This document shows, piece by piece, positions 9,003-9,242 of a stretch of DNA of 64,000 nt. Position 1 is the first letter of the stretch. Each line of letters starts with the position of its first letter. The stretch comes from Escherichia coli (lineage in GTDB: Bacteria > Pseudomonadota > Gammaproteobacteria > Enterobacterales > Enterobacteriaceae), in assembly GCF_003018255.1 (NCBI RefSeq), contig NZ_CP027440.1; one strand, 5' to 3'. The position numbers were made by a program, and so were the translations under genes. The notes beneath the pieces are model-generated. The model was not told the origin of the DNA. It searched no databases and was given only the letters and a program-made list of their open reading frames with translations.

Positions 9003-9242
9003 TGTTGGCCTGATAAGACGCGTTTAGCGTCGCATCAGGCATTAGTGCGCAGTTGCCGGATGCGGCGAGAACGCCTTATCCGGCCTACGGGAACAGTGCT
9101 TTTTGTGGGCCTGATAAGATGCGTTAAGCGTCGCATCAGGCATTATGGCGCAGTTGCCGGATGCGGCGAGAACGCCTTATCCGGCCTACGGGAACAGTGC
9201 TTTTTGTGGGCCTGATAAGACGCGTTAAGCGTCGCATCAGGC
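9003..9242. repeat. tandem REP/BIME array (about 2.3 copies of a roughly 100-bp unit)
   Basis: Repeated gcctgataagacgcgttaagcgtcgcatcaggc and gccggatgcggcgagaacgccttatccggcctac palindromic units between torD and cbpM. Confidence 0.85.

Follow-up and report, generated by a model that had tools for sequence, protein, structure and literature searches.

A tandem REP array assigned to BIME-2, with strain-variable unit number, between the convergent torD and cbpM genes of Escherichia coli

Introduction

Two kinds of BIME are distinguished (PMC3333891). BIME-1 is a single pair of one z1 and one y unit, joined by a long conserved L linker which often holds an IHF site. BIME-2, in the Gilson/Bachellier/Hofnung nomenclature, is built of z2 and y units joined by a short S linker and is flanked by s, l or r motifs; its tandem copy number varies among loci and among strains. 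The family is further marked by the alternation of y and z2 units, by an extragenic position at the 3' ends of genes and by its use as a target of IS1397, an insertion sequence which enters specifically the REP/BIME palindromes of E. coli (as stated in PMC3333891 and PMC1525189).

Among individual arrays the closest described system is REP325, located between the tandem genes yjdM and yjdN inside an operon of strain K-12. It has been characterized as a partly Rho-dependent terminator and mRNA stabiliser with no role in nucleoid compaction (bioRxiv 10.64898/2026.03.23.713779). A different kind of structured intergenic repeat are the two near-identical, GC-rich 222-bp Replication Risk Sequences (RRS), which are defined by G-quadruplex and gap formation (PMC10592627).

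Here we analyse the repeat array located between torD and cbpM in a 64-kb stretch of E. coli DNA, referred to below as the window. The anatomy of the array, its assignment to a class, its copy number in complete E. coli genomes and its possible functions are considered in turn.

Results

Anatomy of the array

The stop codons of the convergent genes torD (+ strand) and cbpM (- strand) are separated by a 254-bp spacer, and this spacer is filled by the array. Tandem Repeats Finder (TRF) reported a repeat at 9001-9243 with a period of 101, 2.4 copies, 95% matches, no indels and a score of 451, by far the strongest tandem repeat of the window. A repeat search resolved it into three copies of an imperfect Y palindrome of 33 nt and two copies of a Z2 palindrome of 30 nt, in the alternating orientation Y<, Z2>, Y<, Z2>, Y<. 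The preliminary description, made from the letters of the window, had placed here, between torD and cbpM, a BIME array at 9003-9242 of about 2.3 copies of an approximately 100-bp unit with two opposed REP palindromes in each; all of this is borne out, the borders, period and copy number being slightly refined, and the features of BIME-2 in PMC3333891 that can be read from a sequence are present. The features of the locus are as follows.

8396..8995, + strand: torD, which ends torCAD and lies upstream of the array on this strand (stop codon 8993-8995)
9001..9243, no strand: whole array, assigned to BIME-2, Y-Z2-Y-Z2-Y, five palindromic units, 101-bp unit in 2.4 copies (TRF and repeat search)
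9008..9040, + strand: Y unit 1, GCCTGATAAGACGC-GTTTA-GCGTCGCATCAGGC, hairpin of -21.8 kcal/mol
9041..9054, no strand: head-to-head linker 1, short (S-type), 14 nt, ATTAGTGCGCAGTT
9055..9084, - strand: Z2 unit 1, GCCGGATGCGGCG-AGAA-CGCCTTATCCGGC, hairpin of about -21.8 kcal/mol, aligns with the Z2 half of Rfam naRNA4
9085..9108, no strand: tail-to-tail linker 1, 24 nt, CTACGGGAACAGTGCTTTTTGTGG
9109..9141, + strand: Y unit 2, with one stem change, GATGC, hairpin of -20.0 kcal/mol
9142..9155, no strand: head-to-head linker 2, short, ATTATGGCGCAGTT
9156..9185, - strand: Z2 unit 2, same sequence as Z2 unit 1
9186..9209, no strand: tail-to-tail linker 2, same sequence as tail-to-tail linker 1 (CTACGGGAACAGTGCTTTTTGTGG)
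9210..9242, + strand: Y unit 3, hairpin of -21.5 kcal/mol (- strand)
9250..9555, - strand: cbpM, which ends cbpAM and lies upstream of the array on this strand (stop codon 9250-9252)

Both outer hairpins lie less than 15 nt from a stop codon: Y unit 1 starts 12 nt past that of torD, and Y unit 3 ends 7 nt before that of cbpM. The tetranucleotide which precedes the hairpin foot, canonically GTAG, is GTTG at Y unit 1 and GTGG at Y unit 2, so that either GTTG or GTGG stands before the Y units of the window. At the Z2 units GTAG is found on the - strand, together with a bubble in the stem; at Z2 unit 1 the motif appears as CTAC on the + strand (9085-9088). The stem change of Y unit 2 retains a G-U pair in the RNA. 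The REP consensus pattern matched the array three times, against an expectation of 0.00 from 100 shuffles, and a looser census of REPs gave a single match in total over 20 shuffles.

The RNA of the spacer folds far more stably than shuffled controls, with z = -12.4 for the + strand and -9.8 for the - strand. Folded palindrome by palindrome, the single units form stable hairpins of -20 to -22 kcal/mol on either strand. The minimum-free-energy folds of the whole spacer, in which distant palindromes are paired, were not taken as biological structures, local hairpins being expected during transcription. An intrinsic terminator (GC-rich stem-loop followed by a U tract) was found on neither strand of 8996-9249; T5 runs occur nowhere but in the tail-to-tail linker, 14 nt past the Z2 stem. 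No sigma-70-like promoter was detected in the torD-cbpM spacer. An open frame of 56 codons (9045-9215, + strand) crosses the array; it is made of the palindrome repeats, is unannotated in the records examined and is almost certainly a by-product of the repeat.

Assignment to BIME-2

The three y units have no more than one mismatch to their consensus (0-1) and the two z2 units have none. Apart from the loop, the z units are those of REP325, and they align to the naRNA4 model. The short linker does not carry the L motif, the IHF consensus WATCAANNNNTTR has no match within 9001-9243, and the tail-to-tail linker of 24 nt is conserved. Judged from sequence, the array can hardly be anything other than a BIME-2: this identity follows from the y and z2 palindromes, the short linker without an IHF site, the tandem amplification and the extragenic position at 3' ends, and the y/z2 units, their alternation, the short linker, tandem copies and variation between strains were all found. 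Compared with the family as described in PMC3333891 nothing essential differs; the array shares with it the alternating y and z2 units, the short linker, the tandem repetition, the extragenic 3'-end position, the strain variability and the targeting by IS1397, and is distinguished by Y units with GTTG or GTGG in place of GTAG. The torD-cbpM element is thus of an already known kind, and copy-number polymorphism is a published property of the BIME-2 class.

The class was also recognized by a biological agent. In two strains, EE72d (L012, 2797-4324) and WCHEC000837 (L014, 1974-3501), the loop of the first Y palindrome holds an IS1397 (by annotation an IS3-family element, 1,432 bp); the insertion point reads GCGTTTA, IS, TTTAGCG, with TTTA duplicated. 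The insertion shows, by a biological and independent route, that the site is recognized as a BIME. The two strains have the same TorD protein, therefore both copies probably descend from one inherited event.

Other assignments were considered and set aside. BIME-1 elements (RIP/RIB elements) resemble the array in being inverted REP pairs at the 3' end of genes; they are, however, single-copy, with a long L linker, an IHF site and a z1 partner, whereas the array has a short linker, no IHF consensus and tandem repeats, and was rejected as a BIME-1 on these grounds. The RRS were compared since 222 bp corresponds to approximately 2.2 array units; they are, like the array, GC-rich, structured, intergenic and of similar size (about 220-240 bp), but they are a different element at a different locus, being located near dusC and lysO (PMC10592627). 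A CRISPR was dismissed, as the palindromes alternate in orientation, the would-be spacers are two linkers that recur, and the units conform to the REP consensus. The K-12 record NC_000913, as included in the genome collection, has no REP feature annotated at torD-cbpM and so provides no official REP number for the array.

Two further REP clusters, at 30029-30157 and 55576-55675, had been called similar to the array beforehand. Both exist, but their types differ and neither is a tandem array of the 101-bp unit. Between efeB and phoH (30031-30153) there are three alternating REP palindromes, two degenerate ones followed by a clean Z2, with no tandem unit. The cluster between mdoH and yceK (55576-55675) is a pair of BIME-1 type, made of a short Y, a 34-nt linker and a z1-like unit; the IHF consensus AATCAATAAATTG occurs in its linker at 55616-55628 (- strand), and the cluster fits the description of BIME-1 as a single-copy y and z1 pair with a long linker and an IHF consensus. 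Inside this pair Rfam gives a match to ES036/CssrF at 55598-55640 (- strand, 47.9 bits). A single degenerate REP palindrome, GCCAGATGCCGCGTAAATGCCTTATCCAGC, absent from the earlier list, was found between putP and efeU at 26491-26520 (- strand).

Some other features of the window were recorded. An Rfam Ysr251 match of 190.8 bits covers the 3' end of phoH and the phoH-pgaD spacer (31238-31431, - strand), and an ES056 match of 119.7 bits lies just upstream of csgD (45413-45504, - strand); both are unrelated to the array. A tRNA-Ser is located at 39730-39814 (- strand).

Relation to REP325 and naRNA4

The array of REP325 has the same layout as that of torD-cbpM, in the order Y, a linker of 13-14 nt, Z2 and a tail linker of about 20-24 nt. 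Its period is 100 bp compared with 101 bp, the palindromes hardly differ, and the consensus units agree at 85 of 104 positions. The two arrays differ in copy number (5.8 in REP325, 2.4 here), in the sequences of the linkers and in their setting, since REP325 stands between tandem genes inside an operon and the torD-cbpM array between convergent operons. The Rfam model naRNA4 matches the torD-cbpM unit from end to end, at two places:

9007..9085, - strand: Rfam naRNA4 (RF02564), 79.6 bits against a gathering score of 59.5; one Z2+Y unit, in the direction of cbpAM transcription
9108..9186, - strand: second Rfam naRNA4 (RF02564) match, 76.5 bits against a gathering score of 59.5

It could be supposed from these two full-length matches above the gathering score, which lie on the - strand and hence in the cbpAM direction, that the units encode naRNA4-like small RNAs, processed from cbpAM read-through and acting with HU in the organisation of the nucleoid; most REPs are indeed transcribed (PMC4550694). 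We consider this very improbable. The two full-length matches arise because the torD-cbpM unit resembles the REP325 unit; they indicate, as far as sequence can tell, that the repeat units are homologous and not that a gene is orthologous, and they are no evidence of an RNA gene. The function of naRNA4 is itself disputed: recent work finds that REP325/naRNA4 does not compact the nucleoid and forms no stable HU-DNA-RNA complex (bioRxiv 10.64898/2026.03.23.713779).

Copy number across strains

The torD-cbpM locus was found in 5,425 of 5,426 complete E. coli genomes. The lengths of the spacer fall into discrete classes, whose frequencies over about 5,420 complete genomes were estimated from two independent, evenly spaced samples of 60 rows from the whole collection: approximately 33% of the genomes have 92-93 bp, 42% have 151-153 bp, 12-13% have 254 bp and 6-10% have 355-356 bp. 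A query with the whole locus gave 20, 26, 7 and 5 rows for these four classes and 2 others (n = 60). A query with the flanks only, where the length of the spacer is the span of the record minus 300, gave 20, 25, 7 and 6 rows, with 2 unjoined (n = 60). Fifteen alleles were compared in sequence, and they represent the following forms.

92 bp: one Y and a short hybrid palindrome (L004, L005)
151-153 bp: Y-Z2 and a divergent third palindrome (K-12, O157)
153 bp: Y-Z2-Y, the window's own haplotype (L008)
254 bp: five palindromes (the window, L002)
355-356 bp: seven palindromes (L006, L007, L009-L011)
IS1397 insertion alleles (L012, L014)
249 bp: allele of a divergent lineage (L015)

The number of palindromes is accordingly 2, 3, 5 or 7 for spacers of 92, 151-153, 254 and 355-356 bp. 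The copy number had been expected to vary between strains and a comparison of units across strains had been suggested as the check; the expectation proved correct. In every allele examined the outer hairpins adjoin both stop codons at less than 16 nt. At the outer Y units of allele L002 the GTAG motif is present.

A 54-nt probe for the tail-to-tail junction was found in 1,116 of the 5,426 genomes, at 1-3 places in each (median 2, maximum 3) and at 2,516 places in total; one cross-checked junction match (H156) lies inside the torD-cbpM spacer of the same record (H4). Since the probe hits only 1-3 places per genome, the 101-bp unit appears to be specific to this locus rather than dispersed, and the maximum is seven palindromes: by this probe no genome of the complete-genome collection has more.

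All expansions hold the 101-bp register. The five seven-palindrome alleles sampled represent four sequences, which differ in the internal unit variant that was duplicated; they therefore point to repeated expansion, or to a reshuffling of units by in-register exchange. The 92-bp and the K-12 forms differ by 59 bp, and the ends of this difference fall within the hexamer GATGCG that is common to two palindrome heads, which reads as the signature of a microhomology or slippage event. In strain CUVET18-1475 (L015, 3253-3501), where cbpM is 93% identical and the genes past cbpA are different, the spacer holds a 249-bp array of five palindromes. Both of its units have common linker variants that are absent from the window, and its first hairpin stands only 6 nt past the torD stop. 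As this divergent lineage has its own homogenised five-palindrome array, its presence at the site is old, and the units have been homogenised within lineages.

Short reads can lead to mis-assembly of tandem repeats of about 100 bp, and the repeat number might in principle be an artefact of a collapsed or expanded assembly. We regard the probability of this as negligible, for spacers of 254 bp are present in about 12% of complete genomes, which come from many laboratories, and the length classes are discrete and tied to haplotypes.

The haplotype of the window

The segment torA-torD-cbpM (about 6000-10000) is 100% identical to that of strain DETEC-S792 (L016, NZ_CP116067.1), the identical span being limited to about 6-10 kb. 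Its flanks in DETEC-S792 are 97-98% identical to the window, and collinearity is lost from about 26 kb; from about 32 kb DETEC-S792 has an annotated integrase, IS and pseudogene remnants and then yersiniabactin genes, which are absent from the map of the window. The best match to the whole window in the collection, JNE23-011, reaches only 99.6%. The pattern indicates that torA-torD-cbpM is a mosaic, recombined haplotype block. A further view, that the window allele is a simple hybrid of a K-12-like and a B2-like haplotype, agrees with only part of the sequence. The array together with the cbpM flank follows the B2-like form, with 2 differences in 290 bp; the final 20 nt of torD and the loop of Y unit 1 follow the K-12-like form; and deeper in torD the sequence is a haplotype of its own.

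Beyond cbpM, the gap between cbpA and agp is only about 535 bp (10476-11009), compared with K-12 where it holds the 1.26-kb yccE; yccE is therefore missing from the window haplotype. In DETEC-S792 a fragment of approximately 100 bp in this stretch is annotated as a pseudogene.

Discussion

A proposed two-way 3'-end role for the array DNA and its transcripts

We infer the functional account of the array from published BIME work. Transcription of either operon into the spacer would give RNA hairpins that block 3'-to-5' exonucleases and halt RNA polymerase to some degree, with Rho contributing. In this way the array could act as a two-way 3'-end element, protecting both mRNAs and limiting antisense read-through. 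Its DNA would at the same time be a preferred gyrase site, which could absorb the positive supercoils arising between the converging transcription units. The outer hairpins, at 12 nt and 7 nt from the stops, are within the 15-nt range reported for ribosome stalling and might lower translation; REPs starting less than 16 nt from a stop codon have been associated with ribosome stalling and reduced translation (Liang et al. 2015, cited in PMC12306157).

Genome-wide, about 60% of REPs stand between convergent genes, and such pairs are expressed higher than pairs without REPs; terminal REPs give no general gain in mRNA half-life and their effects depend on context (bioRxiv 10.64898/2026.03.23.713779). 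We would give an even chance to the proposal that a two-way 3'-end hairpin block, doubling as a gyrase site, is the main role of the array. The identity of the array and this functional account, taken together, are in our judgement a highly probable best explanation of the locus.

It is also possible, though less likely than not, that the primary role is exerted on the DNA, where the array would be a strong, transcription-independent gyrase site and a topological barrier between the converging operons. In BIME-2 elements there is a significant enrichment of gyrase cleavage sites, for the most part in the y units; it is independent of transcription, and blocking transcription strengthens the signal (PMC6379681). 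The majority of BIME-2 sites are found between supercoiling regions (PMC10592627). Three y units are present in the torD-cbpM array. However, only a subset of BIME-2 elements is cleaved by gyrase (PMC6379681), and neither torD nor cbpM has an entry in the searchable part of the supplementary tables of that study, of the 2026 REP325 preprint or of the RepRanger paper.

Change of copy number and the question of neutrality

Unequal homologous exchange between the 101-bp repeats, or slippage between them during replication, would be the most likely cause of changes in unit number. Another candidate is the REP-associated transposase TnpA(REP), which requires GTAG 5' of the hairpin foot and a mismatch in the stem (PMC3333891). 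Its gene tnpA(REP) (yafM/rayT) is reported to be missing from some B2 and from most B1 strains. On the strand of the Y units this route is weakened, because the Y units of the window carry GTTG or GTGG and not GTAG.

The array may be no more than selfish or neutral repeat DNA, a non-autonomous element that was seeded at the site and then expanded or contracted by TnpA(REP) (RAYT) or by slippage; additional units would do nothing for the host, and drift would account for the differences between strains. We hold this to be a minority possibility, one which is nevertheless served by several observations: the copy-number classes from 92 to 356 bp are all common in healthy lineages, each above 5%, the units are homogenised within lineages, the Z2 units still have their GTAG (- strand), and BIMEs are cut and recombined in vitro by TnpA(REP), their proposed amplifier (PMC3333891). 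It is opposed by the lack of GTAG at the Y units of the window, by the correlation of REPs between convergent genes with higher expression (bioRxiv 10.64898/2026.03.23.713779), and by the two outer palindromes, which are fixed beside both stop codons in every allele, that of the divergent lineage included. The fixed positions of these outer palindromes suggest that at least the ends are under constraint.

For the outer hairpins, a selfish or neutral origin and the best explanation given above can both hold. These hairpins may be under constraint, and the units between them are perhaps largely neutral: the inner ones appear dispensable, because about a third of the strains have the 92-bp spacer with one Y and one hybrid palindrome, and extra units may be neutral as well.

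Unit number as a possible setting of expression

A more far-reaching proposal is that the unit number, giving 2, 3, 5 or 7 hairpins, is a heritable dial of expression for both converging operons. The array could then link the stalling of ribosomes where torD and cbpM end to read-through, to the stability of the mRNAs and to local supercoiling, to an extent set by the number of units. Such a coupling is conceivable at both ends because the stop codons of torD and cbpM are less than 15 nt from the outer hairpin in every allele. We consider this dial improbable on the whole. If it were true, lineages would have their own settings of TMAO respiration and of the CbpA/CbpM chaperone/nucleoid system.

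Significance

In its behaviour the torD-cbpM locus resembles a small VNTR: over about 5,400 genomes it has four discrete length classes that are linked to haplotype. It shows recurrent amplification, in place and in register, together with homogenisation within lineages. Its natural alleles with 2, 3, 5 and 7 hairpins could be used for testing REPs as two-way regulators in the 3' UTRs between convergent genes.
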